NCBI GenBank assembly: GCA_009783775.1
Contig: WRCT01000001.1
Span: 1 to 48,567, forward strand
Reading direction: 5' to 3'
DNA from: Clostridiales bacterium
GTDB taxonomy: Bacteria; Bacillota; Clostridia; Christensenellales; CAG-138
DNA length: 48,567 nt
This document shows, one piece after another, positions 4,236 to 32,600 of this stretch (its first letter is position 1; each line of letters starts with the position of its first letter). Below the pieces are notes generated by a model. The model did not search any database. It was given only the letters and a program-made list of their open reading frames with translations, and had not been told where the DNA came from. Position numbers and translations under genes: made by a program.

Positions 4236-4385
4236 AAGTAATAAGGAATGGGGAATAAGTAATAATGTATGTGAAAACAGCTCCGCTGTTTTTTCATTTT
4301 ATATACAGGCAACCCATCATTTGTGCGCCAGCACACCTCCATTATTACTTATTCCTTATTACTTATTCCTTATTATTTATTCCTT
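4236..4385. repeat. heptad-armed hairpin element, copy 1
   Basis: Left arm AAGTAAT AAGGAAT GGGGAAT AAGTAAT (4236-4263). Hairpin GAAAACAGC-tcc-GCTGTTTTTTC (4273-4295). Box TGTGCgccaGCACA. Right arm ATTACTT ATTCCTT, 6 units (4344-4385). Confidence 0.9.
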
Positions 4386-4850
4386 CAGTCGGCAGACGTC
4401 CACCCACCCCGCCACATTCTCAGCCAGGGATTCGAGTTCGGCGAGGGTCAGGCGCACGCAGCTGTTGCCGCTGCCGCAGGCGGGGTAGACACTGTCAAAG
4501 CGGGTCAGGGACTGGTCCAGCCAGACCGCAACCTCGGGCAAGATTGCAAAGGGGCAGACGCCGCCCACCGCGTGGCCGATGTGCTGTTCCACCTCAGGCG
4601 CCGAGAGCATGGTCGCCTTGCAGGCGAAGGTGTCGCGGAATTTCCGGTTGTCCACCCGCGCGTCTCCCGCTGCCACGACAAGGATTGGTTTGCCTCCGAC
4701 CCAAAAGGACAGGGACTTGGCAATGCGCGCGGGCGCAACGCCCAGCGCCTCCGCCGCCAACGCGACGGTCTGGGTAGGTTTTTCAAATTCAACAATTTGG
4801 GGCGCTACTTCCCGGGTCAGAAAGTAAGCGCGCACTTTGTCTATTGACAT
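4377..4850 (-). CDS. YbaK/EbsC/ProX-family aminoacyl-tRNA editing (deacylase) protein
   Basis: 157 aa. KSLSFWV ... ILVVAAGDARVDNRKF ... GHAVGGVCPF pattern. GGAGGA RBS. The last codons and the TAA lie inside the heptad arm. Confidence 0.7.
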   Translation of the reverse strand: MSIDKVRAYFLTREVAPQIVEFEKPTQTVALAAEALGVAPARIAKSLSFWVGGKPILVVAAGDARVDNRKFRDTFACKATMLSAPEVEQHIGHAVGGVCPFAILPEVAVWLDQSLTRFDSVYPACGSGNSCVRLTLAELESLAENVAGWVDVCRLKE

Positions 4851-4861
4851 ATATCCTCCAA

Positions 4862-4970
4862 ACTACAACCTACAATTGAGGAGACGGGCGCTTGGCGCCA
4901 CCCGTTTTTTATCATATCAAATGATAGAAAACTGTAGAGCAGTTTTTTCTTTCATTGTACATTGTACATT
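4862..4970. repeat. heptad-armed hairpin element
   Basis: ACTACAA CCTACAA arm. GC hairpin with a T-run (4883-4910). The box ATCAAATGATAGAAAAC runs into the hairpin AAAACTG-tagag-CAGTTTT (4928-4950). TTGTACA x2 arm (4955-4968). Confidence 0.85.
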
Positions 4971-5408
4971 CACGATCTCCCCCAGCTCCCGAACCGCGTT
5001 CAAAAAGGGCGTGTCGCGGTCCTTTAAGGCGGCCAGCACGCGGTAGGGCCCTTGCAAGACTTCCAGCACGCGAGCTTGAAAGGCAAGGGCGTCGGATTCC
5101 AAAATGCCCAGCTCGTCCATCAGCACCAGCGCGCCCGACGGGATATCCGAAAGCAGGGCCAGACCCAGGCCGTCGAACACCTCGGGGTGGGGACGGGCCA
5201 GGCGTTTTTCCGTGGAGATCAGATCGCCGATTCGATTTGTCTCCCCCATTTGCCGCTCTTTGTCACCGGCGGCGTAGAGATAGATATGGCCGTCGTCCTC
5301 CTTGCGCGTGACAAAGCCGTAAACCGGCCCGCCAATCTCTCCGGCCAGCTTTTGGATATAGGTGCTTTTGCCGCTGCCGCTCGGGCCGCAGACGAGGATG
5401 GGTTTCAT
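4917..5408 (-). CDS. THEP1-like nucleoside-triphosphatase (P-loop)
   Basis: Walker A GPSGSGKST and Walker B LVLMDELG. About 160 aa. No SD; leaderless-type promoter. The C-terminal ~18 aa are encoded by the repeat element. Confidence 0.55.
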   Translation of the reverse strand: MKPILVCGPSGSGKSTYIQKLAGEIGGPVYGFVTRKEDDGHIYLYAAGDKERQMGETNRIGDLISTEKRLARPHPEVFDGLGLALLSDIPSGALVLMDELGILESDALAFQARVLEVLQGPYRVLAALKDRDTPFLNAVRELGEIVNVQCTMKEKTALQFSII

Positions 5409-5415
5409 GTCGGCA

Positions 5416-5424
5416 ATTATATCA
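5416..5424 (-). promoter_or_regulatory. extended -10 promoter giving a leaderless mRNA
   Basis: Minus strand: TGaTATAAT, then 7 nt, then ATG at 5408. No Shine-Dalgarno in between. Confidence 0.5.
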
Positions 5425-5431
5425 CAAATAA

Positions 5432-5459
5432 TTGCCAGACGCCAGATTCCAGTTGCCAG
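5432..5459. repeat. heptad array (TTGCCAG ACGCCAG ATTCCAG TTGCCAG)
   Basis: Four exact-period 7-bp units, directly abutting the terminator hairpin at 5460-5484. Confidence 0.85.
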
Positions 5460-5484
5460 AAAAAAAGGGACGCATGAACGTCCC
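5460..5484 (-). terminator. intrinsic terminator of the SurA-like lipoprotein gene
   Basis: Minus strand: GGGACG-ttcatg-CGTCCC followed by TTTTTTT. Confidence 0.7.
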
Positions 5485-5531
5485 TTGATACTATATCCCG
5501 CGTGAGCGGTCCGGAATCCGGTGTCCGGAAG

Positions 5532-6884
5532 CTATCTCCCGACCATTGCGTAATTCTCGGGGTAGTACACGACGACCTTTTGGGCCTCCTCCAGCCAGTC
5601 GCTTTGACGCTGGCCCCAGACGACGTCCTGACGCTCGAGCAGGGCGGCGGCCGTCGCCGCTTCCAGTACGTCTTTGAGCGGCACGGGGCCGGCGGGCAGG
5701 ATTTCAATGAGCTTGACGATGTAGAAGGTGCCTTCGATTTCGATGATATCGGAGAAGGCGCCCGCCTCCAGTTCCGCCGCCGCGCTCCACACCGCCTCCG
5801 GCACGGAGGGGTCGGTCTCGGTCAGGTAGAGATAGCGAATGTCTTTTGCCTCGTCCTTGTTGTACTTACCCATAATCGCGTCAAAGTCCGCGCCTTCCTC
5901 GGCCAGCTCCGCCGCGGCCGCGTCGGCCTTGGCTTTGGGGCCTTCGGCGAAGGTCTCATACAGCGCGTCCGTGTCAGCCTTGAGCTGCGCGTACTCGTCG
6001 CGAATCTCCTTGAGACGATCCGCGTCCGCGCCGCCCGCGAGCATGAGCTTGCCGTATTCGGCCTCCAGCTTGGCCATCGTTTCCTTGCCCGTGGTATAGG
6101 ACTCGTCGACCTCTTCCTCGGACGCAATGGTGATCAGCGCGATTTTGGCGAAACCCTCGGGCACGGTCAGCGCGGGCAGGGTGGAAAAGCCTTGCTCGAA
6201 CTGCTGCATATAGGCCTTAAAGTCAACGGGCGCTTCGGCGAAAGCCTCCTCATGCGCTTTGAGCTCGCCCTCGTACCAGGCCTTGACGTCCTCGTCGGAG
6301 ACGGTCACGTCCAGGGCGACCTTGCCCTGCACCGCCTCGGTGAGCACCTGGTTGATCATGTCCTTTTTATAGTCTTCCAGATACTTGTCCAATGACATCT
6401 CGTCACCGTAATATCCCTTGATCTCCTCGTCGATCAAGGCCAGCGCGGCCTCTTCCAGCTCGGCGGGGTCGGTTGTTTCCTCGCCGACCAGGGTCATGTA
6501 ATAGTCGATGATATCCTGCCGCTCGCCGGCGATGATATCGTCGATCTCAGCCAGCTGCACGTTGGTGAGGGTCACGCCCATTTCCTCCGCCTTCCAGAGA
6601 ATGGCGTAGTTGGCGAGCATTTGGTCGAGCGCCATCTGCACATACTCCGCGATCTCCGCCTCGTCGGTGGGCGCGGGCATACCGTACTGCTGCATATAGC
6701 CGATGAACCCGTTATAGGCCGCTTCCAGCTCGCCGACCGTGGCGACAAGGTCGCCCAGCTTAAACGCGGGCGCGTCGGGATCTAATTTGGGTTTGTCCGC
6801 GTCCTTGTTCTTGTTGCAGGCCAGCAGGCCAACGACCAATACGGCCGCCAGGCAGAGAATGCAAATTTGCTTAAAAGTCTTCAT
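5532..6884 (-). CDS. SurA N-terminal domain / PrsA-like foldase lipoprotein
   Basis: Start at ATG 6884 (MKTFKQ, AAGGAAAA upstream). Lipobox LLAC. Acidic, helical SurA-like body. The conserved position downstream of mfd in Clostridia was recalled from memory. Confidence 0.6.
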   Translation of the reverse strand: MKTFKQICILCLAAVLVVGLLACNKNKDADKPKLDPDAPAFKLGDLVATVGELEAAYNGFIGYMQQYGMPAPTDEAEIAEYVQMALDQMLANYAILWKAEEMGVTLTNVQLAEIDDIIAGERQDIIDYYMTLVGEETTDPAELEEAALALIDEEIKGYYGDEMSLDKYLEDYKKDMINQVLTEAVQGKVALDVTVSDEDVKAWYEGELKAHEEAFAEAPVDFKAYMQQFEQGFSTLPALTVPEGFAKIALITIASEEEVDESYTTGKETMAKLEAEYGKLMLAGGADADRLKEIRDEYAQLKADTDALYETFAEGPKAKADAAAAELAEEGADFDAIMGKYNKDEAKDIRYLYLTETDPSVPEAVWSAAAELEAGAFSDIIEIEGTFYIVKLIEILPAGPVPLKDVLEAATAAALLERQDVVWGQRQSDWLEEAQKVVVYYPENYAMVGR

Positions 6885-6931
6885 GTTTTGTTTTCCTTTC
6901 GGGCGCACAGTTTAGGCGCACATTGCGGGTC

Positions 6932-7076
6932 TCCCTTTAAAAGCGTTAGGAGATTGGTGAGGATTTTTTGTCGCAGGCGCGGAGCAGGCGTGATACGTAG
7001 CAGGCGGCCTACGTTGAACGACGGCGACAATGTCGGCGGCAAAAAAGACCGCCAAGGTGCAACGCTTTTAAAGGGA
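6932..7076 (+). mobile_element. 145-bp TIR (MITE-like) element, copy A
   Basis: Perfect 16-bp terminal inverted repeat, TCCCTTTAAAAGCGTT / AACGCTTTTAAAGGGA. About 85 percent identical, by eye, to the reverse complement of 11138-11284. Confidence 0.8.
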
Positions 7077-7100
7077 AACCCGCATAAGACACCAATTACA

Positions 7101-10100
7101 TTATACTGGATAATTCTCCATATCGCAAGAGATAAAACTGTGAAGATATTGTGGCAGTTTTTTGAGAATTTCGAGCGCGTTTTGCTCAGCCGTGTGGATC
7201 TCAATGGCGGGCGGGTCCGTGGCGAGCAGGCGCAGGTTTGCGTCGCGCGCAAGGATCGCGAGCAATTTGCCCCCGTCGGGCTGCGCAGACGCGTCATAGG
7301 TGAGCTTGACCAGCCCCGGCCGCACGCGCACCTCAGCCATTCTCGCCCTGCCCGCCAGCGCGCGCACCAGCGCGCCCAGCATAAGCGCCAGCGCGGGGTC
7401 CGGCGGGTCGCCGTAGCGGTCGATGAACTCACAGAGCAGGTCGTCATAACTCTCCTGCCCGTCGATACCCGCGATCCGCTTGTACATGGCCAGCCGCAGC
7501 AGCTCACTGCCGAAGATCTCGCGGGGCAGGTAGGCATCCGTTTCGATGTCGAGCGTGCTTTCCACGGGCGCGATTTCCTCTTCGCCCTTGGCCTCGCGTA
7601 CCGCCTCGCGCATGAGTTTGACATAGTAGTCATAGCCGATATCCGCGATATGCCCGTGCTGTTCCGCGCCTAAAAGGCTGCCCGCGCCGCGGATCTCCAG
7701 GTCGCGCATAGCCAGCGCAAACCCCGCGCCGAACTGCGTGAACTCACGAATGGCCTGCAGGCGTTTGTTGGCCTGCTCAGACAGGACCCGCGCCTCCTGC
7801 ACCGTGAAATACGCGTAACCCAAACGGTCGCCGCGCCCCACGCGCCCGCGCAGCTGATAGAGCTGGGCCAGGCCCATTTTGTCCGCCTCGAGCACGATCA
7901 GCGTGTTCGCGTTGGGGATATCCACCCCGCTTTCGATGATGGTGGAGGTGAGCAGCACGTCCGTCTCGCGGCCCAAAAAACCAAGCATGGCCTTCTCCAG
8001 CTGCCGTTCATGCATTTGCCCGTGCGCCATGTCGATCCGCGCCTCGGGCACAAGTTTTTTGAGGCGCGCGAGGGTCAGCTCCATGCCCTGCACGCGGTTG
8101 GAGACGACAAAGGCCTGGCCGCCTCTGCCCAGCTCCCGTCGCAGGGCGGTGACCAGGAGTGCGTCGTTGTACTCGGTGACAAAGGTCTGCACCGGATAGC
8201 GCTTGGGCGGCGGCGTCTCCATGAGCGAGATGTCTCGAATGCCCGTCATGGACAGGTTGAGCGTGCGCGGAATCGGCGTGGCGGTCAGTGTCAGCACGTC
8301 CACCGTTTCGCGCAGGGCCTTGATCCGCTCCTTGTGGTTCACGCCGAAACGGTGTTCCTCGTCGATGATCAGCAGACCCAGGTCCTTGAAGTGAATGTGT
8401 TTGCCGAGCAGCGCGTGCGTGCCGATGACCAGGTCCAGCGCGCCGGTCTTGAGCTTGCCCGCCACTTCCTCGCGCTCCTTGGGCGAGAGAAAACGCGACA
8501 ACAGGCCAATCCGAATGGGGAAGTCAGAAAAACGTTCGGTCAGCGTGTTGAAATGCTGCTGCGCCAGAATCGTCGTGGGCACGAGGAAAGCCGCCTGCTT
8601 GCTGTCCTGCACCGCCTTGAACACGGCGCGCAGCGCGACTTCGGTCTTGCCGTAACCCACGTCGCCGCAGAGCAAGCGGTCCATGGGGCGCGGGCTTTCC
8701 ATATCCGCCTTGACGTCGATAATCGCCTGCTTTTGGTCGGGCGTCTCCTCGTAGGGGAAACGCGCCTCAAGCTCACGCTGCCAGTCGTTGTCGGAGGAGA
8801 AGGGAAAACTCTGCCGGCCCGCGCGGGCCGCGTAGAGAGCGGACAGGTCCACGGCCAGTTTTTTGGCCGCCCCGCGCGCGCGGTTCACGCGGCTCTGCCA
8901 CTCGCCCCCGCCCAGCTTGGAAAGCTGGGGTTCGACACCCTCTCCCCCGCCGATGTATTTTTGGACGCGGCTCAACTGGTCGGTGGGGATATACAGCTTA
9001 TCCGTGCCGCGATAGGCCAAAAGCAGATAGTCGCGGCTGGCGCCCAAAGCCGTAACCTGCTCGATGCCCACAAAGCGGCCGATACCGTGCGCCTCGTGCA
9101 CGACAAAGTCGCCCGGTGTCAGATCGGCCACGCGCGTCCCGCCCGTTTTTTTGGCGGTCGGTTTGGTGAATTTTTTATAGAAGAGTTCCGCTTGCGTGAG
9201 CACGGTCAGGCGGGTCTCGGGAAAGACAAAACCGCAGGGCAGGTTCTGACCCAGCACCAGAATCTCGCCGCGCACGGGCGGACGGGTCAGCGTCTCGGCC
9301 CAGCCGTGGGGCACATCTTCCATGGCGAACAAGTCGCGGATACGTCCCGCAGCCTCGCCCGCATAGATCACCACGGCGTCGCCATGCGCCTTGCTCCGGT
9401 GCGCCTCATTTGCCAGCGCGGTCAGATCGCCCAGGTGCTGCGGCGCGGCGTGGGCGTCGAAACGCACCTGCGTCGGGTGGGAGAATGCGGGGCTGGCGCG
9501 AAAGAGGGAATAGAGCGCGGCGGCGGTTTTCCCGCCCAGCGCGGGGGCAATATCCGACCCGTCCCCCAGCAGTTCGGCCTGGGCAGGGTGTCCCTCGCCC
9601 CGCTCCAACATGGACGCCACAGTCTCGAGAAAGAGCGTTGCGGCGGTCGCGGCCTCGTCCAGTACGCGCTGCGGCTCGGCGCAGAGCAGGAAGGTCTCGT
9701 CGGGCAGGTAGGAGAACAGGGAATCGGTTTTTGCATACAGCAGTGGCAGCAGCACATCCGCGCCCACGCTGGGAAGGCCCTGCTCCCAGGCCTCGCGCTG
9801 GAAGGCGAAGCCCTCCGCCTCGCCAAGTGCGGCAAGGGCGCGGTCTATGGCCTCTCTTGGCTGCGGGGTTTCAAAAGCGGGCGGCAACAGGACCGCGTCC
9901 GACACCGCCACGGCGCGCTGGGTTTGGGGGTCAAAGCTGCGGATTTGGTCAATCTCGTCCCCGAAGAATTCCAGGCGGACGGGCAGGCTTTCCTGCGGCG
10001 GGAAGATATCCAGAATATCGCCGCGCATGGCGCATTGTCCGCGCCCCTCGACCAGCGCCACGCGCTCGTAACCCGCCGCGATCAATTGGGCCAGCAGGGC

Positions 10101-11125: not shown

Positions 11126-11137
11126 TTATAATACTAA

Positions 11138-11909: not shown

Positions 11910-12108
11910 CGTCATTGCGGACTTGATCCGCAATCTCAGTTAGTATTGGGATTGCGGGTCAAGCCCGCAATGGGAATCGCTGATTAACGCAATTCCCGCG
12001 TAGGGGCGGCTATTAGCCGCCCGCGAAACCGCCTGTTTACGCACGTTATGCGGGCGATTGATAATCGCCCCTACGCGAACGGGTACTTAATCAGCGATTC
12101 CAATGACG
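11910..12108. repeat. 199-bp nested composite palindrome built from REP-like and GTAGGGGCG units
   Basis: Outer pair CGTCATTG / CAATGACG. 15-bp inverted repeat GGAATCGCTGATTAA (11973-11987) / TTAATCAGCGATTCC (12087-12101). REP units at 11910-11937 and 11948-11974. GTAGGGGCG units at 12000-12022 and 12052-12074. Confidence 0.85.
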
Positions 12109-12430: not shown

Positions 12431-12458
12431 GAGATTGCGGATCAAGTCCGCAATGACG
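12431..12458. repeat. REP-like hairpin unit
   Basis: GAGATTGCGGA-tcaag-TCCGCAATGACG, between two minus-strand genes. Confidence 0.85.
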
Positions 12459-15869: not shown

Positions 15870-17180
15870 ATGTCGAAACAAGTCAATAAAAGAAAAAGAA
15901 TCAAGGGAAAGCGACTGCCCGCGAAACCGCTGCGCCCGCTTTTGGAGAGCATACTGGTCTTTTGGCGCGGTAAGCTGAGGACAAAATACGGTCTGACGGT
16001 GGACCGCGAGGCCCTGCGCGGCGTGAAACCGCCCTTTATTGTGGTGTTCAACCATGTGGGCGATGACGACCAGTTTGTCGCGGGCACCGCGCTGCACCCC
16101 GTTATGCCCAACTACATGATGTCCAACTGGGCGGAGCACAGCTTTCCGCTGGCGCCGCTGTCGAAAGTGGCCGGCGCGATCCACAAGATCCGTTTCGTGC
16201 CGGACGTGCGCGCGGTCATGGCGGCCAAGCGCGTGCTCAAGGAACGCGGCGGCGTGGTCGGCGTCGCGCCCGCAGCCAGCTATTCCATCGACGGCACGCC
16301 CAGCTATTTCGACTACGGCATCGCAAAGTTCTGCAAGATGTTCAAGGTGCCCGTGTTCGCCCTGCGCATGGACGGGCTGTATTTCTTCCACAACCGCTTT
16401 TCGGGGCGGCAGCTCTGCAGGCTGCACGGCGCGGTGACCCGCGTGTTTGACGGGCCGGAACTTAAGGACATGGCGACCGAAGAGGTTTACAAACGCCTGT
16501 ACGAGGCCTGCGATTTCAACGACTTTCAATACCAGCGCCGCGTGATGGCGCCCGTGATCGCCAAAGACGACAACCTGGCCGAGGGCATGGAGTATGTGGC
16601 CTATCGCTGCCTGCGCTGCGGGGCCGAGTTCCAAACCGAGGGCAAGGGCAATGTTTTAACTTGCTCAGCCTGCGGCAACGCCCTGCGCGTGAACCGATAT
16701 TATTTCTTCGAGCCCCATTCCTCGCCCTGCGCCTGGGTGGAGGAGCTGAACCAATGGACGCAGTTCCAGCGGCAGCTGGTGGCCGAAGAGATCGAAAAAG
16801 AGGATTTTCATATCAGCTGCGACTGCGCGCTCTATCGGTTTACCGAGGGCAAGAAATACGGCGTGACGCGTTACGGGCGGGGCAGACTGCGCCTGGACGC
16901 CTCGGGCTTTACCTATACCGGCACGGACAAGGACGCGGGCGTAACCTATCATCACCCTCTGGCGGACACCTATTATGTGGGCAACGACACCCGCGTGTAT
17001 CTGAGCGTGGACACGCCCAAGCGCAGCTATCAGTACCGGCTGGACAATATGAAGATGGGCGCGAAATACCTGCTGGCCCTAACCGCGCTGCGGGAGAAAT
17101 ACCATCCCTACTTCCCCGACGAGGCGGAGTGGCGGCGGGGGCTGGTTACGAATACCGAATTTACAATTCATAATTCATAA
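15870..17180 (+). CDS. PlsC/LPLAT-family acyltransferase-like protein with C-terminal zinc-ribbon region
   Basis: Motif FNHVGDDD (HX4D block). GVAPAASYSIDG block. CLRCG..CSACG pair. The stop TAA lies in the heptads ATAATTC ATAATTT. Confidence 0.6.
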   Translation: MSKQVNKRKRIKGKRLPAKPLRPLLESILVFWRGKLRTKYGLTVDREALRGVKPPFIVVFNHVGDDDQFVAGTALHPVMPNYMMSNWAEHSFPLAPLSKVAGAIHKIRFVPDVRAVMAAKRVLKERGGVVGVAPAASYSIDGTPSYFDYGIAKFCKMFKVPVFALRMDGLYFFHNRFSGRQLCRLHGAVTRVFDGPELKDMATEEVYKRLYEACDFNDFQYQRRVMAPVIAKDDNLAEGMEYVAYRCLRCGAEFQTEGKGNVLTCSACGNALRVNRYYFFEPHSSPCAWVEELNQWTQFQRQLVAEEIEKEDFHISCDCALYRFTEGKKYGVTRYGRGRLRLDASGFTYTGTDKDAGVTYHHPLADTYYVGNDTRVYLSVDTPKRSYQYRLDNMKMGAKYLLALTALREKYHPYFPDEAEWRRGLVTNTEFTIHNS

Positions 17181-17183
17181 TTT
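17163..17183. repeat. heptad array (ACAATTC ATAATTC ATAATTT)
   Basis: Three 7-bp units overlapping the last codons and stop of the acyltransferase gene, followed by an A/T-tract hairpin. Confidence 0.7.
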
Positions 17184-17192
17184 GGTGACAAG

Positions 17193-17221
17193 AAAAAACT
17201 GCCCACAGCGGGCAGTTTTTT
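17193..17221. terminator. bidirectional intrinsic terminator
   Basis: AAAAAA-CTGCCC-acagc-GGGCAG-TTTTTT, between convergent genes. Confidence 0.85.
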
Positions 17222-17224
17222 CGC

Positions 17225-17272
17225 GGGCGGCTATTAGCCGCCCCTACGCGTAGGGGCGATTATCAATCGCCC
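17225..17272. repeat. pair of GTAGGGGCG-family hairpins (inverted pair)
   Basis: GGGCGGC-tatta-GCCGCCCCTAC, then cg, then GTAGGGGCGAT-tatca-ATCGCCC. The same two stems recur at 12000-12074. Confidence 0.85.
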
Positions 17273-20319: not shown

Positions 20320-20324
20320 CGGAA

Positions 20325-20569
20325 TGTACAATGTACAAACTACAAACTACAATTGTGGTAACGGGGCATTCTGCCCCGTTTCTTATTTGATAAATTTTAC
20401 AAATTTTGTGCAACCTTTTTTCACAATATGTGGTATTATGTATATGTTGTATGGCTATAATTTGTGTGTAATGCTAAAAATAAAGAAAAACACAGAGTGT
20501 TTTTTTCCTCAATTGTAGTTTGTAGTTTGTACATTGTAGTTTTTTGTATTGTAGTTTGTAGTTTGGAGA
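20325..20569. repeat. TIR-bounded heptad element with AT-rich core
   Basis: Left arm TGTACAA x2 ACTACAA x2 (20325-20352). Right arm TTGTAGT/TTGTACA units (20513-20569). The innermost ~32 nt of each side, including the CAATTG[A/T]GG junction, are reverse complements of each other. The core holds a GC hairpin, ~95 bp of AT-rich DNA and the hairpin AAAAACAC-aga-GTGTTTTT. Confidence 0.85.
20361..20389 (+). terminator. intrinsic terminator after rubrerythrin
   Basis: ACGGGGC-attct-GCCCCGT followed by TTCTTATTT. Confidence 0.65.
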
Positions 20570-20573
20570 AAAT

Positions 20574-21266
20574 ATGGAACAAAGCCCTGCCGGCCCATTC
20601 ATCGACATTCGCGGCGTGACAAAGGTCTACCATGTGGGGGACGTGGATGTGCACGCCCTGCGCGGCGTGGATTTGCAGATCAAAAAAGGCGAGCTTTGCT
20701 GCATTGTCGGGCGCAGTGGCTCGGGCAAGTCCACCCTCTTGAATGTGCTGGCGGGTTTGGAGCGCGTGACCGCGGGCGAGATCACCATCGCGGGCCAGCG
20801 TTTGGACAAAATGTCCGAGGCCGAGATGATTTTGTTTCGGCAGAAATATGTGGGGTTTGTGTTCCAGTCCTTTAACCTCATGCCCTACTACACCGCGCTG
20901 GAGAATGTGGCCTTTCCCCTGTCGTTTCGCGGTATGCCGCAAAAGGAGCGCAACGCGCAGGCGTTGGATATCCTGACGCAAATGGGTTTGGAGACGCACC
21001 AGCGCCACAAGCCGGCGCAGCTCTCCGGCGGACAGCAGCAGCGGGTGGGGATCGCGCGCGCGCTGGTGGGGCGGCCCGAGCTGGTCTTTGCGGACGAGCC
21101 CACGGGCAACCTGGACTTTGCCACAAGCGATGAAGTCATGCACAGCATTCGGGATATCTGTAGAGCGCAGAACAAGACGCTGATCATGGTCACGCACGAT
21201 CAGCATATCGCGGAGTTTGCGGACCGGACGATTCAGTTGTTGGACGGGAGAGTAGTGGACAGTTGA
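20574..21266 (+). CDS. ABC transporter ATP-binding protein (MacB/LolD/FtsE-like)
   Basis: Walker [10 protein letters not shown]. Signature LSGGQQQRV. Walker B LVFADEPT. The RBS GGAGA is a degenerate heptad. The stop TGA lies inside the GACAGTT array. Confidence 0.9.
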
Positions 21267-21389
21267 CAGGGGACAGTTGACAGTTGAGGAAAAAACAGCT
21301 CTGCTGTTTTCTATCATTTGATAAAATTAAAAACGGGCGGCGCAGGCGACCGTTACCACAATTGTAGTTTGTACATTGTAGTTTGTAGT
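21258..21389. repeat. intercistronic heptad-armed hairpin element
   Basis: Arm GACAGTT GACAGGG GACAGTT GACAGTT. Hairpin AAAAAACAGC-tct-GCTGTTTT. The box GTTTTCTATCATTTGAT starts in the hairpin's 3-prime arm. A second GC hairpin. Arm TTGTAGT TTGTACA TTGTAGT TTGTAGT. Confidence 0.9.
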
Positions 21390-21410
21390 TTGAAATAACG
21401 GGAGGATGTT

Positions 21411-22812: not shown

Positions 22813-22947
22813 AACCGCGAAACACGCAAGCGGTAGCGGTATCCGTCATTGCGGGCCCCGACCCGCAATCTCTCTGCTTTATTTGCTCAGAGATTGCGGA
22901 TCAAGTCCGCAATGACATAAAAAGAGGCTTTCGTGTTTTTCGCGGTT
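22813..22947. repeat. composite BIME-like element: outer ~19-21-nt imperfect inverted repeat enclosing two inverted REP units
   Basis: AACCGCGAAACACGCAAGC / GCTTTCGTGTTTTTCGCGGTT enclose CGTCATTGCGGG..CCCGCAATCTC (22844-22872) and GAGATTGCGGA..TCCGCAATGACA (22890-22917). Confidence 0.85.
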
Positions 22948-26410: not shown

Positions 26411-28108
26411 TTGGAACAAGAGGGAAAAACCACGACACAAGATAATAATGACACAGGCAAGCCCGCCCGCGCAAGGCGCAAGGCCTTCGTTTGGGCCGGT
26501 ATCGGCCTGTTTTTGGCAGCGGTCACGGCGCTCGGGCTTTGGGCAAATCCGGACAGCGGCAAGCAGCTTTTGATTGCCCTGGGCCTGGCCCAGCCCACGC
26601 CGCCGACAGAACTGACCTTTGTACAGGCGCGTGTCTTTGCCGAGACCCCGCCGCCCGAGGCGGTCCCAACGCCGACGCCTGCGCCCACGCCCGTGCCCAC
26701 GCCCACGCCGCCGCCGCACCCCGCGCGCGGCGATGTGATCGAGGTCGACACGGAATCCCCTGTGGTGCGCGACATTCATATTCAGCTGATGGCTTTGGAG
26801 TATTTGGGCTTTGACGAGGTGGAGGAAGTGTTCACCGAGGGGCTGGCCGACGCGATTTTGTTCTTCCAGCGGCGCAATGACCTGCCCGCCACGGGTCTGG
26901 TGGACGAGGCCACCTTTGCCGCGCTCAACGCCCCCGAGGCTTTGGCCTACGCAATCGCGCCGGGCATGACGGGCGAGGAGGTGTTTCTCGTCACCGAACG
27001 GTTGGTGGAGCTGGGGTACTTGAACGGTGAGCCAAGCGAAGTCTATGACGAGGAGACGGCCGAGGCGGTGAGCCGCTTTCGGCGCAAGAATAAACTCTCC
27101 GCGGGCGACGAGATCGACGCGGAGGCCTTTGAGATCCTGCTTGGCGAGGACACGGTCTCCAATTTCTTCGGCCAGGGCGACAAGAGTCCGGAGGTAGAGG
27201 AATATCAGAAAATACTTTATACGCTGGGTTATCTCGTCACCGAGCCGGACAGCGTTTACGGGCGGTTGACCGCCGCCGCCGTGCGCAGGTTTCAGGAGAA
27301 GAACGGTCTGATCACGGACGGCTGTTTGGGCCGCACGACGCTCGAGGCCTTAACGCAAGGCAAACCGCCCGCCTTCACCTTTGACAAGGGCATGGAGGGC
27401 GACGACATCAAGCACATTCAGGGACGGCTGGCCAAGTTCGGCTATCTCGGGGAGGCGCAGACCACGGGCTACTACGGGGACAAGACCGCGCTGGCCGTGC
27501 TCTCGTTCCAGAACCGGAACGGGCTTGCCAAGACGGGTGCGGTGGATCACAAGACCCTGCTCAAATTAAACAACGACAAGTCCAAACGGGCCGTCGCGGA
27601 TACGCCCAAAAATAACGGCGGCGGCAGCTCGTCCTCCGGCGGCGGTTCCTCCGGCGGCGCAAAGAATACCACCGGCAACAGTGGCGACAGTAAGGCCAAG
27701 CCGGGCGGCTCGCCCATCGACTACGGAGAGGGCATCGACGCCTTCATCGCCGTGGCGCAGTCCAAGTTAGGCAGCAAGTATGTGCGCGGCGCGAAGGGCC
27801 CGAACAGCTTTGACTGCAGCGGGTTCGTCTACTGGTGCTTAAACCAGGTCGGCGTGAACCAGGGATATCTGACCAGCATTGGCTGGCGCACGGTGGGTAA
27901 GTATGAGCGCGTCGTCAGCATGAGCGAGCTAAAGCGCGGCGACGTGCTGGTGTTCTCCGGCTCGTCCTCGGGCACGGGGCACGTGGGCATTTATATCGGC
28001 GGCGGCAGAATGATCGACGCCGGCAGCTCCCGGGGCCGCGTGGTCGAACGCAGCATTGAGACGAATTACTGGCGTTCGCACTTCCTTATGGCGTACCACA
28101 TTTGGTAA
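26411..28108 (+). CDS. peptidoglycan-binding (PG_binding_1 repeats) NlpC/P60 endopeptidase
   Basis: TTG start after AAAGGGGG. TM anchor. Four or five LGY..G..DG.(Y/F)..T..AV..FQ repeats. C-terminal FDCSGFVYWCL ... GHVGIYIGGGRMIDA catalytic pattern. Confidence 0.85.
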   Translation: MEQEGKTTTQDNNDTGKPARARRKAFVWAGIGLFLAAVTALGLWANPDSGKQLLIALGLAQPTPPTELTFVQARVFAETPPPEAVPTPTPAPTPVPTPTPPPHPARGDVIEVDTESPVVRDIHIQLMALEYLGFDEVEEVFTEGLADAILFFQRRNDLPATGLVDEATFAALNAPEALAYAIAPGMTGEEVFLVTERLVELGYLNGEPSEVYDEETAEAVSRFRRKNKLSAGDEIDAEAFEILLGEDTVSNFFGQGDKSPEVEEYQKILYTLGYLVTEPDSVYGRLTAAAVRRFQEKNGLITDGCLGRTTLEALTQGKPPAFTFDKGMEGDDIKHIQGRLAKFGYLGEAQTTGYYGDKTALAVLSFQNRNGLAKTGAVDHKTLLKLNNDKSKRAVADTPKNNGGGSSSSGGGSSGGAKNTTGNSGDSKAKPGGSPIDYGEGIDAFIAVAQSKLGSKYVRGAKGPNSFDCSGFVYWCLNQVGVNQGYLTSIGWRTVGKYERVVSMSELKRGDVLVFSGSSSGTGHVGIYIGGGRMIDAGSSRGRVVERSIETNYWRSHFLMAYHIW

Positions 28109-28217
28109 TAGAGTGGAGTGTTGAGAGTTGAGAGTTGAGCGAAGGAAATAACGGCTCCGCCGTTATAATTGTAGGGGCGGCCTGTGGTCGCCCATCCTTA
28201 ACTCCACTCTCAACACT
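28108..28217. repeat. heptad-armed hairpin element with embedded GTAGGGGCG unit
   Basis: Arm ATAGAGT GGAGTGT TGAGAGT TGAGAGT TGAGCGA. Hairpin ACGGC-tcc-GCCGT. GTAGGGGCG-gcctgtggt-CGCCC (28171-28193). Arm ACTCCAC TCTCAAC. Confidence 0.8.
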
Positions 28218-28220
28218 TTC

Positions 28221-28249
28221 TTGATATTTTCCCAAACATCGAGTATAAT
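28221..28249 (+). promoter_or_regulatory. sigma-A type promoter for the L,D-transpeptidase gene
   Basis: TTGATA, 17-nt spacer, TATAAT. 26 nt upstream of the ATG, which has an AGGAG RBS. Confidence 0.65.
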
Positions 28250-28275: not shown

Positions 28276-29340
28276 ATGAAGCGGCTGACGATTGGATTTT
28301 TGATTGCGATTTTGATATTGGGCCTTTGCCCCGCAGTAGCGAGCGCAAAAGATGAATTGAAGAACACGGACCCCGACCGGTTCTTTTTGGTGCTGGACCT
28401 GAACAACCAGGTGGTGACCGTATACCAGCGGGACGAAAACGGGGAGTATACCGATATCGTGCGGCGGTTCGTTTGCTCCTCGGGCAAACCCACCGCGCCG
28501 GACGCCCCCGCTGACGCAAAGACCTATGACACGCCCACCGGCATTTGGAAACTCGGCGGACGGCGGCGCATGGGCACCTTTGCCGCGTTTGGCGACTGGG
28601 CCCGCTATTGGGTGCAGATCGTGGGCGACAACATCTTTCATTCCGTGCTGTTTCGGGACGAAAAGGTAACCTCCATCAAATCCTACAACGAGCTGGGCGC
28701 GCGGCCCGCCTCCCACGGCTGCGTGCGGCTTGCCGTAGAGGACGCCAAGTGGCTGTATTATTATGCCTGCCCGGGCACGACCATCGAGGTCACCAACCGG
28801 ATCAAAAAGAACGCCAAGTATACGGAATCCATCCGCGCGGCCACGGTGGGGCGGGTGAAGTTTGCCGAGTATAAGGTGCTGCAGGCGAATTTTTATGACA
28901 CCGAGGAGCTGCCCAACGACAAGTGCTGGGTCAGCGTGGAGGGCGCGCGTATCTTCAAAAGCAACGATAAGGTGGGGACCCTGGTCGGCAGGCCCGCCGT
29001 CGGCACAGAGCTGGAAGTTCTGATGGAAAGCCCCGCCTTTTACATGGTGCGGTTTGAGAAAAAGATCGGCTACATTCTGCGCGGGTACATCACCCTGACC
29101 GAAGGCGTGGTGGACACGGTCGAGAACGCGACGCTGATGGGCAACACGACCATGTGGATGTACACGGAGCCGGACGATAAGTCGGAGCGCATCTGCAAGG
29201 TGCCCAAATTTTCCGGCGTGAAACTCATTGAAAAGGGTGAGAAGTTTTCTTTGATCCAGTATTATGATGAAATCGGCTATGTGACCAACAAAAGCCTGAT
29301 CACCGACTGGGGACTGGCGTTTGACACGGCAACCGAATGA
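28276..29340 (+). CDS. L,D-transpeptidase (YkuD domain) with two SH3b-like repeats
   Basis: Signal peptide. HSVLF ... SHGCVRL catalytic motif. C-terminal SH3b-like repeats. Confidence 0.8.
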   Translation: MKRLTIGFLIAILILGLCPAVASAKDELKNTDPDRFFLVLDLNNQVVTVYQRDENGEYTDIVRRFVCSSGKPTAPDAPADAKTYDTPTGIWKLGGRRRMGTFAAFGDWARYWVQIVGDNIFHSVLFRDEKVTSIKSYNELGARPASHGCVRLAVEDAKWLYYYACPGTTIEVTNRIKKNAKYTESIRAATVGRVKFAEYKVLQANFYDTEELPNDKCWVSVEGARIFKSNDKVGTLVGRPAVGTELEVLMESPAFYMVRFEKKIGYILRGYITLTEGVVDTVENATLMGNTTMWMYTEPDDKSERICKVPKFSGVKLIEKGEKFSLIQYYDEIGYVTNKSLITDWGLAFDTATE

Positions 29341-29358
29341 ACTGCGGTTCATTCGGTT
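29331..29358 (+). repeat. perfect 12-bp hairpin with TGCG tetraloop
   Basis: AACCGAATGAAC-tgcg-GTTCATTCGGTT. Includes the ldt stop codon. Confidence 0.9.
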
Positions 29359-29374
29359 GGAACGCGGGTGGGAC

Positions 29375-29418
29375 CATCACTTCCTGAAATTCTGCGGAAT
29401 TTCCGGGCGGAAGTGATG
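29375..29418 (+). repeat. nested hairpin with TGCG tetraloop
   Basis: Outer stem CATCACTTCC / GGAAGTGATG. Inner hairpin GAAATTC-tgcg-GAATTTC. Confidence 0.9.
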
Positions 29419-29472
29419 TAAGGAGTGGGCTAGCGGCCGCGCAGGTCGCCCTTGCCCACGGATTATTGTGGG

Positions 29473-29496
29473 ATCAAGGGGTTGCGACCCCTTGAT
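29473..29496 (+). repeat. 10-bp hairpin with TGCG tetraloop
   Basis: ATCAAGGGGT-tgcg-ACCCCTTGAT, nested inside CCCACGG (29454-29460) / CCGTGGG (29524-29530). Confidence 0.9.
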
Positions 29497-29541
29497 AATC
29501 CCCTTTTGGATTTTCGTGCATTTGCCGTGGGCGTTTGAGGA

Positions 29542-29569
29542 TTGACAAATAATGATTATCCATTACAAT
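29542..29569 (+). promoter_or_regulatory. promoter giving a leaderless MFS mRNA
   Basis: TTGACA, 16-nt spacer, TACAAT. Exactly 7 nt to the ATG at 29577, with no SD. The spacer contains the palindrome ATAATgATTAT. Confidence 0.6.
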
Positions 29570-29576
29570 AATTGAT

Positions 29577-30746
29577 ATGGATAATGCAAAAACAAACAAA
29601 ACCGACACAAGGATAAGGATCGCCATCTTATCCTTGTGTTTTATCGTGGTGGTTTATCTGGTTCCGGCCGTGGCGATGAACGGGATCTTGGCCGCCTTCC
29701 CCGGCGTTTCGGAAAACACCGTCATGCTCATGCTGTCCCTGCCGAATCTGACGGGGCTGGCGGGCATACTCATCGTGCCGGCCGTACAAAAATGGCTGAC
29801 CTATAAGGCGCAGAGCCTGCTGGCGATGGGGCTGCTGCTGGTCAGCGGGACCCTGTCCCTTGCGCTGGCGGACAGCCTGCCCCTGCTGATAACCATGGCC
29901 GGACTGCTGGGTTTTGCCTACGGGGTGCTGGCGACGACCTATCCGCTGCTGGTCGGGCTGCATTTTTCGGGCACGGCGCGCGCCTTTATGATGGGCGTGG
30001 CGGCGGGAGTGCTGCAGCTGGGGCGGCTGGTGATTGCGCTGCTGGCCGGATTTTTGGCGGATATCCGCTGGAATTATATTTACTTCACCTTTGTCTTTGT
30101 GGCGGCCGCCTTTGTAATCGTGCTGCTTCTGCTGCCGAACGCGCGGGCGCTGCCGCCGGTCAAAACCGAGAAGAAACGCGCGCCGCTGTGGAAAAACGGG
30201 GAACTGGTCCGGCTCTGCCTGCTGGGGCTGCTGTTCACCGTTCTTTACTATCTGACCGTCACGCATATCTCGCTCTATGTGGAGGGCGGCGGTTTGGGCA
30301 CGGCGGCCACCACGGGCATGGCAAACGGCGTGGGATTGGTCGCCGGCGTGGCGATGTCGTTTTTGTTTTCCAAGCTCTTTCGTTTTACGGGCAAGGCCAC
30401 GCTTGCCGTCGCGTTCGGGTTGCTGGGGCTGGGTTATCTCTGCTGCGGCTTTTTCGTGAACCTGCCCGCCCTGCTGGTGGGATTGATCTTTGCCAACCTG
30501 GGCATGGGCCTGGCCGCCCCATATTTTATGCTGCGCGGCGGCTTGGTCGCGCCGGGCGCGGAGGGGCCGGCGATGGCCGTGCTGCTGGTCTTTATCAACT
30601 TCGGCTACTTTTGCTCGCCCTATATCTCTACCCTGCTGTCCGGCGGCGCGCCCTTGGCTTTTCTGTATTTTGGGCTCGTGGCAGGAGTGGTTGGCGCAAT
30701 TCTGGCGGCAAGCCGAATTGCACAAGGAATAAGTAAGAAGGAATAA
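29577..30746 (+). CDS. MFS transporter
   Basis: 389 aa, about 12 TM. The stop TAA and the last codons (ISKKE) are encoded by the AAGGAAT/AAGTAAG heptads. Confidence 0.75.
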   Translation: MDNAKTNKTDTRIRIAILSLCFIVVVYLVPAVAMNGILAAFPGVSENTVMLMLSLPNLTGLAGILIVPAVQKWLTYKAQSLLAMGLLLVSGTLSLALADSLPLLITMAGLLGFAYGVLATTYPLLVGLHFSGTARAFMMGVAAGVLQLGRLVIALLAGFLADIRWNYIYFTFVFVAAAFVIVLLLLPNARALPPVKTEKKRAPLWKNGELVRLCLLGLLFTVLYYLTVTHISLYVEGGGLGTAATTGMANGVGLVAGVAMSFLFSKLFRFTGKATLAVAFGLLGLGYLCCGFFVNLPALLVGLIFANLGMGLAAPYFMLRGGLVAPGAEGPAMAVLLVFINFGYFCSPYISTLLSGGAPLAFLYFGLVAGVVGAILAASRIAQGISKKE

Positions 30747-30860
30747 GTAATGGTGGAGGTGTGCTGGCGCACAATGAATACGCCGCCAAATCATATAAAA
30801 GAAACTGCCGTTGGGCAGTTTTTTCATTCACTATTACTTATTCCCCATTCCTTATTACTT
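30724..30860. repeat. heptad-armed hairpin element, copy 2 (core inverted relative to copy 1)
   Basis: Arm AAGGAAT AAGTAAG AAGGAAT AAGTAAT. Box GGAGGTGTGCTGGCGCACAATGA. Hairpin AAACTGCC-gttg-GGCAGTTT. Arm ATTACTT ATTCCCC ATTCCTT ATTACTT, abutting the proS stop. Confidence 0.9.
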
Positions 30861-32600
30861 TCATATGCTCTCGGGAACTTCCCGCTCAATCTCTGCGGTC
30901 AACTCTGCAATCAGTTCGCGCACGCGAGAAAGGGCGTCGGCGATGGCTACGTCCTCTTTGACGCGCTTGTCGCGGGTGACGAGCTCGAAAGCGCCGCGCG
31001 CTAAAGTTTTGGGGCTGACAACGAGCCGGATCGGCACGCCCAACAGGTCCGCGTCCGAGAACATAAAGCCGGGCGACACGGCGCGGTCGTCGAACAGAAC
31101 CTCTATGCCCTGCGCCTGCAAAGCGATATACAGCGCGTCGGCCTCGCGGCGGACATTCTCGTCGTCCACGCGCAGGGCGCAGATATGCACCTGCCAGGGC
31201 GCGATGGAAATGGGCCAGATCGGGCCGTAATCGTCGTGTTTCGCCTCGCAGACCGAGGCCATCAACCGTCCCACGCCGATCCCGTAGCAGCCCATGATGG
31301 GGTGGACACGGTTGCCCAGCGCGTCGTCGAAGGTCATGTCCATGGATTCGGTGTATTTTGTGCCCAGCTGGAAGATATTGCCCACCTCAATGCCGTGCGA
31401 AATGCGCAGGGCCGGCTCGCCGCAATTGGGGCAGGGGCCGCCGGAAAAGGCTTGTCCGACATTGACGTAGGGGACGGCGCCCCCGACGTCCCGCGAAGGG
31501 GTAAAGCCTGTGTAGTGATACCCTTCTTTGTTCGCTCCGCAAACCAAATTCGTGGCTCCCATAAGGGATTGGTCATAGATGACGTCGGCCTTGGCGTTCA
31601 GGTTGACCGGTCCGCAGCAGCCCGCCACCAGCCCGCAGCTCTCCAGCTCCTGCGCGGGATGGATTTCTGCTTTCAAGTAGTTGCGCAGCTTGGTCTCGCT
31701 GATGTCGATATCGCCCCGGCAGAAGACCACGACAAAGCTGTCGTCCGCGTTGCGCTGATAGACCACGGCCTTGCAGGACTTGGCGGGGTCCGTGCCCAAA
31801 AAGCCGCAGACCTCCTCGATGGTTTTGTTCTCGCCGGTATCGACCAAGGTGAGGGGGTCGAGGACTTCATCCGTTTCATTGCTTGTGATGCACTCCGCCG
31901 CCTCGATATTGGCGCGGTAGCCGCAGGCGTCGCAGAGTACAAGCGTGTCCTCGCCGATGTCGGCCAGCAGCATGAACTCGTGGCTGATCTTGCCGCCCAT
32001 CATGCCCGAGTCGGACTGCACCGAGATGACCTCCGGCACGCCCGCGCGGGCAAAGATACGCTCATAGGCGCGGTAGCAGCGTTCGTAGTAGGCCTCCAGA
32101 TCCTCCTGGCTCGTGTGGAAGGAGTAGCCGTCCTTCATGGTGAACTCGCGCACGCGGATCAGGCCGCCCCGGGCGCGCGGCTCGTCACGGAATTTGGTTT
32201 GGATCTGATAGATCATGAAGGGATATTTCTGATACGTGCCCGCGACGTGCATGGCCAGGTGCACCGCCGGTTCCTCGTGCGTCATGCCCAGGACCATGGG
32301 CGAGCCGGAGCGGTCCGAAAAGCGCACGAGCTCGCTGCCGACGCTGGTATAACGCCCCGACAGCTCCCACAGCGAGGCGGGGATCGCGACGGGGAAGAGC
32401 ACTTCCTGCCCGCCGAGCGCGTCCATTTCCTCGCGCAGGATCGCCTCGATCTTGTTTACGATACGTTTGGCGGGCGGGAACAGGGAATAAATGCCGTTGC
32501 CGACCTGTTTGATGTAGCCGCCGCGCGTCATCAGGTTTTGGCTCGCAATATCAAAGGCGCGCTCCTTAAACCGCTCGCCCAGCAATTGACTCATTTTCAT
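30861..32600 (-). CDS. proS: proline--tRNA ligase (bacterial type with INS editing domain)
   Basis: 579 aa. The FRDEPRARGGLIRVREF motif (class II aminoacyl-tRNA synthetase), an INS editing-domain insertion, and a C-terminal anticodon-binding domain. Confidence 0.95.
   Translation of the reverse strand: MKMSQLLGERFKERAFDIASQNLMTRGGYIKQVGNGIYSLFPPAKRIVNKIEAILREEMDALGGQEVLFPVAIPASLWELSGRYTSVGSELVRFSDRSGSPMVLGMTHEEPAVHLAMHVAGTYQKYPFMIYQIQTKFRDEPRARGGLIRVREFTMKDGYSFHTSQEDLEAYYERCYRAYERIFARAGVPEVISVQSDSGMMGGKISHEFMLLADIGEDTLVLCDACGYRANIEAAECITSNETDEVLDPLTLVDTGENKTIEEVCGFLGTDPAKSCKAVVYQRNADDSFVVVFCRGDIDISETKLRNYLKAEIHPAQELESCGLVAGCCGPVNLNAKADVIYDQSLMGATNLVCGANKEGYHYTGFTPSRDVGGAVPYVNVGQAFSGGPCPNCGEPALRISHGIEVGNIFQLGTKYTESMDMTFDDALGNRVHPIMGCYGIGVGRLMASVCEAKHDDYGPIWPISIAPWQVHICALRVDDENVRREADALYIALQAQGIEVLFDDRAVSPGFMFSDADLLGVPIRLVVSPKTLARGAFELVTRDKRVKEDVAIADALSRVRELIAELTAEIEREVPESI

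Follow-up and report, generated by a model that had tools for sequence, protein, structure and literature searches.

Why do so many genes in one uncultured Clostridia lineage end in, or directly at, tandem repeats of seven nucleotides? We analysed a stretch of 48,567 nt, the whole of which is called the window here, from contig WRCT01000001.1 of a Clostridiales bacterium (assembly GCA_009783775.1). The initial annotation of this DNA had proposed that heptanucleotide (heptad) arrays supply stop codons and C-termini to the flanking genes, and that the elements either insert into gene 3' ends, bringing a frame-independent stop with them, or arise there. We found that the arrays form the inverted arms of roughly ten cassettes, which lie between genes and have hairpin cores that resemble terminators; two core families occur. 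We consider it probable that these are lineage-specific, modular, dispersed cassettes that fill unconstrained intergenic DNA, and that the stops and protein tails they encode are a passive consequence.

Heptad arrays and the ends of genes

Tandem arrays were counted with Tandem Repeats Finder (TRF; period 7, 14 or 21) and compared with 60 shuffles that keep local composition. The window holds 16 arrays where the shuffles give 0.8 +/- 0.9, and 14 of the 16 are intergenic, though intergenic DNA makes up 11.5% of the window (p=7e-12). Array density is 3.3 per 10 kb in the window, 11.4 in the closest relatives and 0.16-0.39 in more distant relatives (approximately 1.5 Mb around spo0A and proS). 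The heptad arrays are far beyond chance and lineage-specific. The genes of the window are all of the housekeeping kind, e.g. mfd, pth, gyrA/B, proS, spo0A and lgt, and the gene names are backed by Pfam, except for the acyltransferase, which has no Pfam match.

Ten gene 3' ends in the window overlap an arm or lie no more than 5 nt from one:

4377-4379 (-), stop TAA of YbaK, inside AAGGAAT-AA; the protein ends ...CRLKE
30744-30746, stop TAA of the MFS gene, inside an arm; the protein ends ...GISKKE
21264-21266 (+), stop TGA of the ABC ATPase, inside an arm; the protein ends ...RVVDS
17178-17180 (+), stop TAA of the acyltransferase (436 residues), inside an arm; the protein ends ...FTIHNS
4917-5408 (-), THEP1-like ORF, ending ...VNVQCTMKEKTALQFSII; reads through a TGTACAA arm and a hairpin
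28106-28108 (+), stop TAA of NlpC/P60, at an arm boundary
45538-45540 (+), stop TAG of spo0A, at an arm boundary and overlapping the first unit of the array
30861-30863 (-), stop TGA of proS, at an arm boundary
5532-6908 (-), PpiC-like gene, its stop directly abutting the arm CTTCCGGACACCGGATTCCGGA
20319, end of rubrerythrin, 3 nt before the TRF array start, or 5 nt with TGTACAA taken as the phase of the arm

Read directly from the sequence, every stop coordinate in the initial annotation is correct; the PpiC-like gene is a tenth case that it overlooked. The weakest case is the acyltransferase, the array of which has only 2.6 copies.

The last residues and the stop of five genes are encoded by cassette sequence, namely YbaK, the MFS gene, the ABC ATPase, the acyltransferase and the THEP1-like gene. 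For the first four this concerns variable tails only. The conserved core of YbaK ends WVDVC[KR]L at L155 of 157 and is followed by 0-12 variable residues in about 40 homologs; relatives lacking the cassette end CRL-RDLEP* and CRL-PETEA*, against CRL-KE* in the window. Homology of the ABC ATPase to solved nucleotide-binding domains reaches residue 227-228 of 230. For the acyltransferase, the alignment with the best homolog (55% identity) extends as far as residue 427 of 436, and the tails of its homologs measure 3-27 residues. The nearest MFS ortholog (70%, array-free) has the same aligned end position, with the tail SRKNKNQ vs QGISKKE.

That the tail of the THEP1-like protein is element-encoded was borne out. 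In three close lineages (the window, P0002 and P0003) the tails all differ, diverging immediately after ...RELGEI, and distant homologs carry about 35 further homologous residues that are absent from this clade. The tail in P0002, FTVGSVSFAVGS..., is itself read from a heptad array, and the tails of the window and of the related locus L169 are both read from such arrays. Likewise, YbaK of the relative L294 has an 11-residue cassette-encoded tail, PSEELGMRSEE*, with a 7-residue periodicity.

The proposal does not hold for spo0A, proS, PpiC and NlpC/P60, which keep native ends. Ten array-free relatives of spo0A end ...KKAG* at the codon used in the window; the PpiC ortholog of L169 stops at the same residue; and proS can be aligned with homologs of about 70% identity up to its last residue, 579 of 579. 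NlpC/P60 ends YHIWG* in L296 and YHIW* in the window, and in L296 too an array, made of other words, comes right after the stop. It should be noted that synteny is lost across the 160 loci around spo0A and proS, so that only these two genes themselves are comparable there. Stops and tails come from the cassette only past the final residue under constraint; next to a constrained tail, the arm halts at the native stop.

Cassette structure, copies and proposed spread

The cassettes and solitary arrays of the window are as follows, numbered E1 to E8 where they have two arms:

4228-4386 (-), E1, core family 1, between YbaK and RidA: YbaK-side arm (AAGGAAT/AAGTAAT)n 4340-4386, core 4266-4344 with a terminator-like hairpin 4273-4293 within it, RidA-side arm 4232-4265
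4851-4975 (-), E2, core family 2, between the THEP1-like gene and YbaK: 5' arm GAATGTACAATGTACAATG 4950-4975, hairpins at approximately 4925-4946 and at 4882-4905, 3' arm CAATTGTAGGTTGTAGTTT 4858-4881 running into the Shine-Dalgarno sequence (SD) of YbaK
5433-5534 (-), E3, between the PpiC-like gene and THEP1: arm CTTCCGGACACCGGATTCCGGACC 5505-5531 directly after the PpiC stop 5532-5534, hairpin 5465-5486, second arm (TCTGGNN)4 5433-5460, then an extended -10 TGTGATATAAT
17158-17222 (+), single short arm AATTCAT x2.6 (17165-17182) that holds the acyltransferase stop, followed by a strong bidirectional terminator-like hairpin (17192-17222) and then by copies of a repeat called REP-B below
20323-20569 (+), E4, between rubrerythrin and the ABC ATPase: 5' arm (AATGTAC)2(AAACTAC)2 20323-20354 starting 3 nt past the rubrerythrin stop, hairpin 20360-20380, promoter-like region 20380-20470, second hairpin at approximately 20487-20507, 3' arm (TTGTAGT/TTGTACA)n 20511-20569 ending at the SD
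21254-21396 (+), E7, core family 2, between the ABC ATPase and a permease: 5' arm (GACAGTT/GACAGGG) 21254-21287 holding the ABC ATPase stop, hairpin 21292-21310, then TATCATTTGATA and a second hairpin, 3' arm (TTGTAGT/TTGTACA) 21361-21396
28109-28226 (+), E6, after NlpC/P60: arm TAGAGTGGAGTGTTGAGAGTTGAGAGTTGAG 28109-28142 beginning 1 nt past the NlpC/P60 stop, hairpin at approximately 28148-28165, REP-B copy 28171-28198, inverted arm AACTCCACTCTCAACACT 28203-28226
30724-30863, E5, core family 1, between the convergent MFS gene and proS: MFS-side arm 30724-30750, core 30751-30829, proS-side arm 30833-30860 abutting the proS stop
44618-44655 (+), lone array (CACTGTC)n upstream of spo0A, in the divergent region; no stop in sense orientation
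45538-45725 (+), E8, after spo0A: 16-copy array (AGATTCC/AGACGCC/AGACTCC) 45539-45655, family-2-like hairpin at approximately 45664-45682, arm (TTGTACA)n 45688-45725; the arms are not complementary

In brief, a gene stop is followed by a 5' heptad arm, one or two hairpins, a 3' arm that is usually the reverse complement of the 5' arm, and then the neighbouring gene's SD, promoter or convergent stop. The inverted arms enclose cores of 60-160 nt. The core hairpins consist of an A-tract, a short GC stem and a U-tract and fold at -4.7 to -20.5 kcal/mol (z-scores -2.4 to -6.1); a terminator consensus scan flags 4273-4293, 5465-5486, 20360-20380 and 21292-21310. Pairing between arms amounts to -17 to -44 kcal/mol in E1, E3, E4, E5 and E6. 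The spacer between stop and hairpin is filled almost wholly by the arm, and on the far side the arms reach the SD (GTAGTTTGGAGGATATATG before YbaK, GTAGTTTGGAGAAAATATG before the ABC ATPase). The stop TGA of THEP1 (4917-4919) falls in the conserved TATCATTTGATA motif of E2, past the arm and the first hairpin.

Before YbaK and the ABC ATPase, SD and start context look cassette-borne, and the YbaK SD of L169 differs from that of the window. The sequence GTAGTTTGGAGRAWATATG is found in near-identical form before YbaK (4851-4872) and before the ABC ATPase (20548-20576), with the family-2 3' arm running into it.

The evidence for dispersal comes from the two core families. The family-1 core spans approximately 80 nt and comprises a hairpin (GGTGTGC-loop-GCACA), then TGGGYTGCC, then a terminator. 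E1 and E5 are 74% identical over arms and core, and both contain the odd unit GGGGAAT. The same core with related arms is found in L294 between YbaK and RidA and between aconitase and isocitrate dehydrogenase, and in L296 between NlpC and YkuD. This makes five copies aligned over arms and core, at four loci in three genomes, two in the window and three in relatives. In all five, the 3' arms can be aligned in register and are made of variants of a single heptad, YAYTCYY. Small ORFs starting in this core (MEVCWRT...) were judged spurious because the conservation is only at the nucleotide level.

In family 2, E2 and E7 align through both hairpins, the TATCATTTGATA motif and the 3' arm CAATTG(TAGTTTG)n, whereas their 5' arms differ (TGTACAA in E2, GACAGTT in E7). 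The window holds up to four copies or partial copies of this family; the homology of E2 and E7 is clear, and E4 and E8 mainly share the 3' arm.

Identity is 74% and 60% between copies of one genome, and 55% between copies that occupy the same junction in different genomes. The greater closeness inside a genome points to recent spread or homogenisation within each genome. Insertion of elements at gene ends, as the initial annotation suggested, is correct at least in part, since whole cassettes, arms included, recur at unrelated loci.

An nhmmer search with a hidden Markov model of the family-1 core gave no further copy outside those three genomes in the approximately 2.4 Mb searched. Exact-pattern scans for both core families found nothing in GTDB representative genomes, among which this lineage is not represented, or in viral contigs, and no phage link was seen in the latter. 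Rfam gave no family at the gathering threshold in the whole window. At E<=1 over the cassettes it gave nothing meaningful; the lone match was a chance one to a miRNA precursor and reflects the long hairpin.

Relatives differ in whether a given junction carries a cassette. At YbaK-RidA there is none in L292 (YbaK 77% identical), where the spacer has neither arms nor hairpins, YbaK ends CRLRDLEP* and the RidA SD follows 18 nt on. It is also absent from L293 (YbaK 76%, end CRL-PETEA*). The orthologous cassette is present in L294 (YbaK 75%), with arm words AATTAGG/AATGAGG/AGTGAGG and CCTAATT-type units where the window has AATAAGG and CCTTATT, and its core is inverted relative to YbaK compared with the window. 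Core inversion together with a parallel word change on both arms is the outcome expected of recombination between inverted arms. In L169 (80% identical) the THEP1-YbaK junction lacks E2 and has a different short array, CAGTGGG/CAGTGTC, and the (TCTGGNN)4 array upstream of THEP1 is kept in place in both the window and L169. In L170 (2040-2420) cassettes lie in a divergent region where no gene ends. The contigs L087, L297 and L298 (ENA ERZ27257304) and L088 (Logan SRR10512951) encode identical proteins and are 100% identical to the window, and they are therefore uninformative on array-length polymorphism.

A tandem duplication of approximately 231 nt was seen in L170 (2040-2500). It comprises a whole cassette and the first 60 nt or so of the THEP1-like gene.

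We suggest that the arms evolve in place by unit slippage and arm-to-arm recombination, and that whole cassettes may spread by transposition or gene conversion. We infer this mobility because the copies are homologous and are present or absent at orthologous junctions. On this reading, a cassette takes up all the space from the last constrained codon of the upstream gene to the SD or promoter of the next gene. A gene arriving from either side meets words of T and purines, often with TAA, TGA or TAG. Where a dispensable tail and the native stop have been replaced, translation ends at the first in-frame stop of the arm, as in YbaK, the MFS gene, the ABC ATPase and the acyltransferase. An arm with no in-frame stop lets translation run on to end in the core, as in THEP1, and next to a constrained tail the arm begins exactly at the native stop (spo0A, proS, PpiC and NlpC/P60). 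If the cassettes have a function, it is most likely bidirectional termination and mRNA punctuation of the kind proposed for the repetitive extragenic palindromic (REP) and bacterial interspersed mosaic elements (BIME), judging from their structure only.

Alternative explanations

Several observations weigh against spreading cassettes. A given core is found with more than one 5' arm, and given arm words with more than one core, which makes the cassette modular and not a fixed unit. The arms of E7 and E8 are non-complementary, and the arrays at 44618 and 17165 are solitary. No direct repeat (target-site duplication) was found at the ends of the five family-1 copies, where the ends are blurred by the arrays, and the window contains no transposase, parent insertion sequence or REP-associated tyrosine transposase (RAYT) gene. 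The YbaK tree is star-like, so gain and loss at YbaK-RidA are not separable. The gene calls used for the cross-phylum scan described below are crude, being long ORFs filtered on the difference in GC content between third and second codon positions (GC3-GC2). Finally, the MFS stop codon position is shared with the array-free ortholog, the native tail of which is similarly A-rich, and this fits growth of an array in place over that tail.

The last point bears on the view that there was in-place growth of simple sequence only, by slipped-strand mispairing beside pre-existing terminators, with no mobility and with stops copied from the native region. Variation of the words from locus to locus and the (TCTGGNN)4 array kept in place between the window and L169 are also in its favour. 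Heptanucleotide simple sequence repeats are moreover the commonest long class of such repeats in many bacteria (Mrazek 2007, as cited in PMC4679880 and PMC4692102). We nevertheless regard it as unlikely. It does not account for E1 and E5 sharing arms, the GGGGAAT unit and core at unrelated loci, for the two-hairpin core common to E2 and E7, for the YbaK-RidA spacer of L292 that lacks the hairpins as well as the arms, or for the L170 cassettes in a region without a gene end.

It is less probable still that the arms serve as recognition arrays that regulate the flanking genes, either as a duplex in read-through RNA that is processed, e.g. by RNase III, or as a 7-nt motif bound by an oligomeric protein. 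The complementarity of the arms has been kept through parallel word changes between the window and L294, the duplexes are strong, and the 3' arms abut SD sequences; RNase III processing of the stem of one MITE (miniature inverted-repeat transposable element) has been proposed in Coxiella (PMC5896051). The diversity of words, on the other hand, speaks against a single sequence-specific binder. Duplex energies and G-U counts are not consistently in favour of the transcribed strand, and the E1 duplex has the better energy antisense. One arm is kept without a partner in L169, and those of E7 and E8 do not pair. The co-variation needs no selection, since it is explained by recombination between the arms, to which the core inversion testifies.

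Two observations touch on this subject. The repeat (UUGUAGU)n puts UAG every 7 nt at 20511-20569, 21361-21396 and 4858-4881; HutP binding sites have a UAG-N4 x3 spacing, and HutP-like binding is a candidate. A Mini-III-like protein of 138 residues, with an RNase III domain and without a double-stranded RNA-binding domain, is encoded at 3427-3843 (-), two genes downstream of E1; this is probably a coincidence.

Are the arms, then, devices for stopping translation? The initial annotation had reasoned that a heptad containing a stop triplet closes all three frames, and that four words do so in the orientation facing the incoming gene, while noting that other words have no stops and that the rule is not universal. 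In the sense orientation three frames are closed by the YbaK, NlpC and MFS arms, two by the ABC, acyltransferase and proS arms, and none by the PpiC, rubrerythrin and spo0A arms. Three-frame closure follows from arithmetic, and it was seen in only 3 of the 10 arms at gene 3' ends; the ABC and acyltransferase arms, for which it had also been claimed, close two frames.

In antisense, the arms hardly ever contain a stop. Of the 16 arms at gene 3' ends in the clade, 11 have the larger number of closed frames in the sense orientation and 1-2 in antisense, a bias that becomes 6 vs 1 (p=0.125) when counted by word family, the 16 arms representing very few families. The 5' arm is purine-rich and the 3' arm pyrimidine-rich in 9 of the clade's 10 inverted pairs, and since the reverse complement of a purine-to-pyrimidine pair has the same polarity, genes from either side meet a purine-rich arm. 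The stop-facing bias follows because stops consist of T and purines, their complements are never stops, and the 5' arm is purine-rich; selection is not needed to explain it.

A selected barrier, in which the arms halt in-frame, frameshifted or read-through ribosomes before the hairpin and so guard termination or prevent aberrant extensions, is in our opinion very improbable. The orientation bias and the three arms that close every frame are what such a barrier would lead one to expect. Yet 3 of the 10 window arms are stop-free and three more close just two frames, THEP1 reads through both arm and hairpin, and the bias no longer counts as independent evidence when the arms are grouped by family. 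Purine polarity predicts the bias and holds also for stop-free words such as CCAGANN, and an array overlapping a stop has, by construction, a stop in sense. We found no evidence that a frame-independent stop brought by the elements is a selected function. The stops and tails of the cassettes are probably a passive by-product and not a dedicated frame-independent stop device.

Chance or assembly artefact is already refuted for the set as a whole: the acyltransferase array with its 2.6 copies might be such a case, the background density predicting about 1-2 chance arrays per window, but 16 arrays stand against 0.8 expected, identical sequence occurs in other assemblies (L087, L297, L298 and L088), and homologous cassettes occur in other samples.

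Related repeats in other bacteria

Intergenic heptameric repeats have been described in Xanthomonas (GGGAATC) and Nostoc (GGGGA(T/C)T) (Rehm et al. 2015, PMC4692102). These consist of tandem 7-nt units in 2 to >20 copies, are over-represented in non-coding DNA, and form 70-75 inverted ('convergent') pairs per Xanthomonas genome (PMC4692102). They are biased to 0-50 bp from a stop or to overlap with an ORF, in which case the purine-rich (G-rich) strand is the coding one; it is the non-coding one in repeats upstream of starts, and between divergent genes the repeats are under-represented (PMC4692102). The arrays of the window resemble them in being far above chance, intergenic, paired in inverted orientation, near or over stops, and purine-rich on the sense strand. 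They differ in that the window has many, mostly A/T-rich words per genome and not one G-rich word, in that its arms enclose conserved terminator-like cores, which are dispersed repeats in their own right, and in the host, an uncultured Clostridia lineage. The G-quadruplex explanation given for GGGNATC x4 (Rehm et al.) was rejected for the window because no array contains G-tracts or a G3+ x4 motif.

TAACTGA direct repeats occur in marine Beggiatoaceae, cyanobacteria and Bacteroidetes (MacGregor 2015, PMC4679880). In the forward orientation they stop all three frames, so that overlap with ORF ends is at most 18 nt; 13 ORFs are listed with a stop overlapped by repeats, and arrays also lie directly upstream of start codons (PMC4679880). 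The window arrays are likewise heptameric, intergenic and stop-overlapping, whereas TAACTGA is a single word, mostly in direct and not inverted repeats, without a hairpin core. No tandem TAACTGA was found in the window.

In Coxiella, the MITEs QMITE1 and QMITE2 have an overlap of 1-50 bp with the C-terminal ends of functional genes, and one MITE supplies EnhC with 33 C-terminal residues and a stop (PMC5896051). The cassettes are similarly small, non-coding and dispersed, with terminal inverted repeats and overlap of gene 3' ends; unlike those of MITEs, their terminal repeats consist of tandem heptad arrays, which vary from copy to copy, and no target-site duplication or transposase was identified.

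Cyanobacterial short tandemly repeated repetitive (STRR) heptanucleotide repeats (Mazel et al. 1990, as cited in PMC4692102) also come as several tandem heptamer words per genome in intergenic DNA. STRR words include CCCCAGT, TTGGTCA and CAACAGT, all three of which are absent from the window. We know of no report of inverted arms with a terminator core for STRR repeats.

Stop overlap, inverted pairing and three-frame stops have already been described, in Xanthomonas, Beggiatoa and Coxiella. New here are the many words, the conserved terminator cores and the host lineage, and the elements belong with intergenic heptameric repeats and MITE-like elements that overlap gene ends.

A GTDB scan for (CCAGANN)x4 gave at least 120 loci/genomes in Acidobacteriota, Verrucomicrobiota, Planctomycetota, Clostridia and other groups. 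Many of the loci listed are inverted pairs around a short loop, e.g. (ACCAGAA)4-loop-(TTCTGGT)4. Among the matches listed, the 5' arm is purine-rich in 29 adjacent inverted pairs vs 6 (per locus 24 vs 3, p=5e-5), and 109 arrays overlap or lie at most 150 nt downstream of the ends of coding-like ORFs. Of these 109, 26 overlap the stop and 28 begin within 5 nt of it; in the sense orientation 41 of those 54 are purine-rich and 12 pyrimidine-rich. Inverted heptanucleotide arrays that abut stops with the same purine polarity are known from Clostridia, Xanthomonas, Acidobacteriota, Verrucomicrobiota and Planctomycetota. Examples of CCAGANN inverted hairpins are L189 3066-3144, L196 13-80, L197 1549-1617 and L221 2134-2397 (within L172-L291), and some loci have several different words side by side.

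A more far-reaching proposal, which we put forward tentatively and think rather doubtful, is that these are undescribed mobile 'punctuation cassettes', in which a stop-rich arm is combined with a bidirectional terminator and, for family 2, with an SD and start context, and which overwrite whole short spacers. They would be part of a cross-phylum class of polar inverted heptads beginning where translation ends, made by a dedicated or transcription-linked mechanism, e.g. R-loop-promoted slippage in the untranslated 3' spacer, and not by ordinary replication slippage.

For annotation, gene ends encoded by repeats make C-terminal tails, and sometimes SD and start contexts, unreliable for orthology and structure prediction. 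For the study of protein evolution, repeats that expand to the last constrained codon reveal which tails are dispensable. A lineage with many words and conserved cores is also a good system for deciding between terminators, mobile elements and mutational scars.

REP and BIME elements are intergenic, lie at gene ends and inside operons, form hairpins, occur in many dispersed copies and are thought to punctuate transcripts. The cassettes share with them the intergenic position, the hairpins and the dispersal, and lack the REP unit, an imperfect palindrome of 20-40 nt with a GTAG-type tetranucleotide and an associated RAYT. The window also holds two REP-like families separate from the cassettes. 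Several other intergenic regions are taken up by family A, GTCATTGCGG ... CCGCAATGAC, after which CCGCAATCTC often comes. In family B, the REP-B of the list above (GTAGGGGCG-loop-CGCCC), there is a GTAG tetranucleotide, as is typical of RAYT-associated REPs; one of its copies lies inside E6, and the window has no RAYT gene.

3333-3424, 11911-11990, 12448-12457, 22845-22916 and 35913-35922, REP-like family A
12000-12074, 17239-17258, 28171-28198, 39518-39526 and 46081-46089, REP-like family B

A G20 homopolymer near the start of the window (76-95) may be an assembly or sequencing artefact. In relatives, (AATTGAC)n arrays make a consensus -35 box (TTGACA) every 7 nt (L296 1305-1345, L294 4698-4731 and L022 1895-1924). 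The L296 array ends TTGACAATTATAAT directly upstream of an MFS gene and looks like an array-built promoter.

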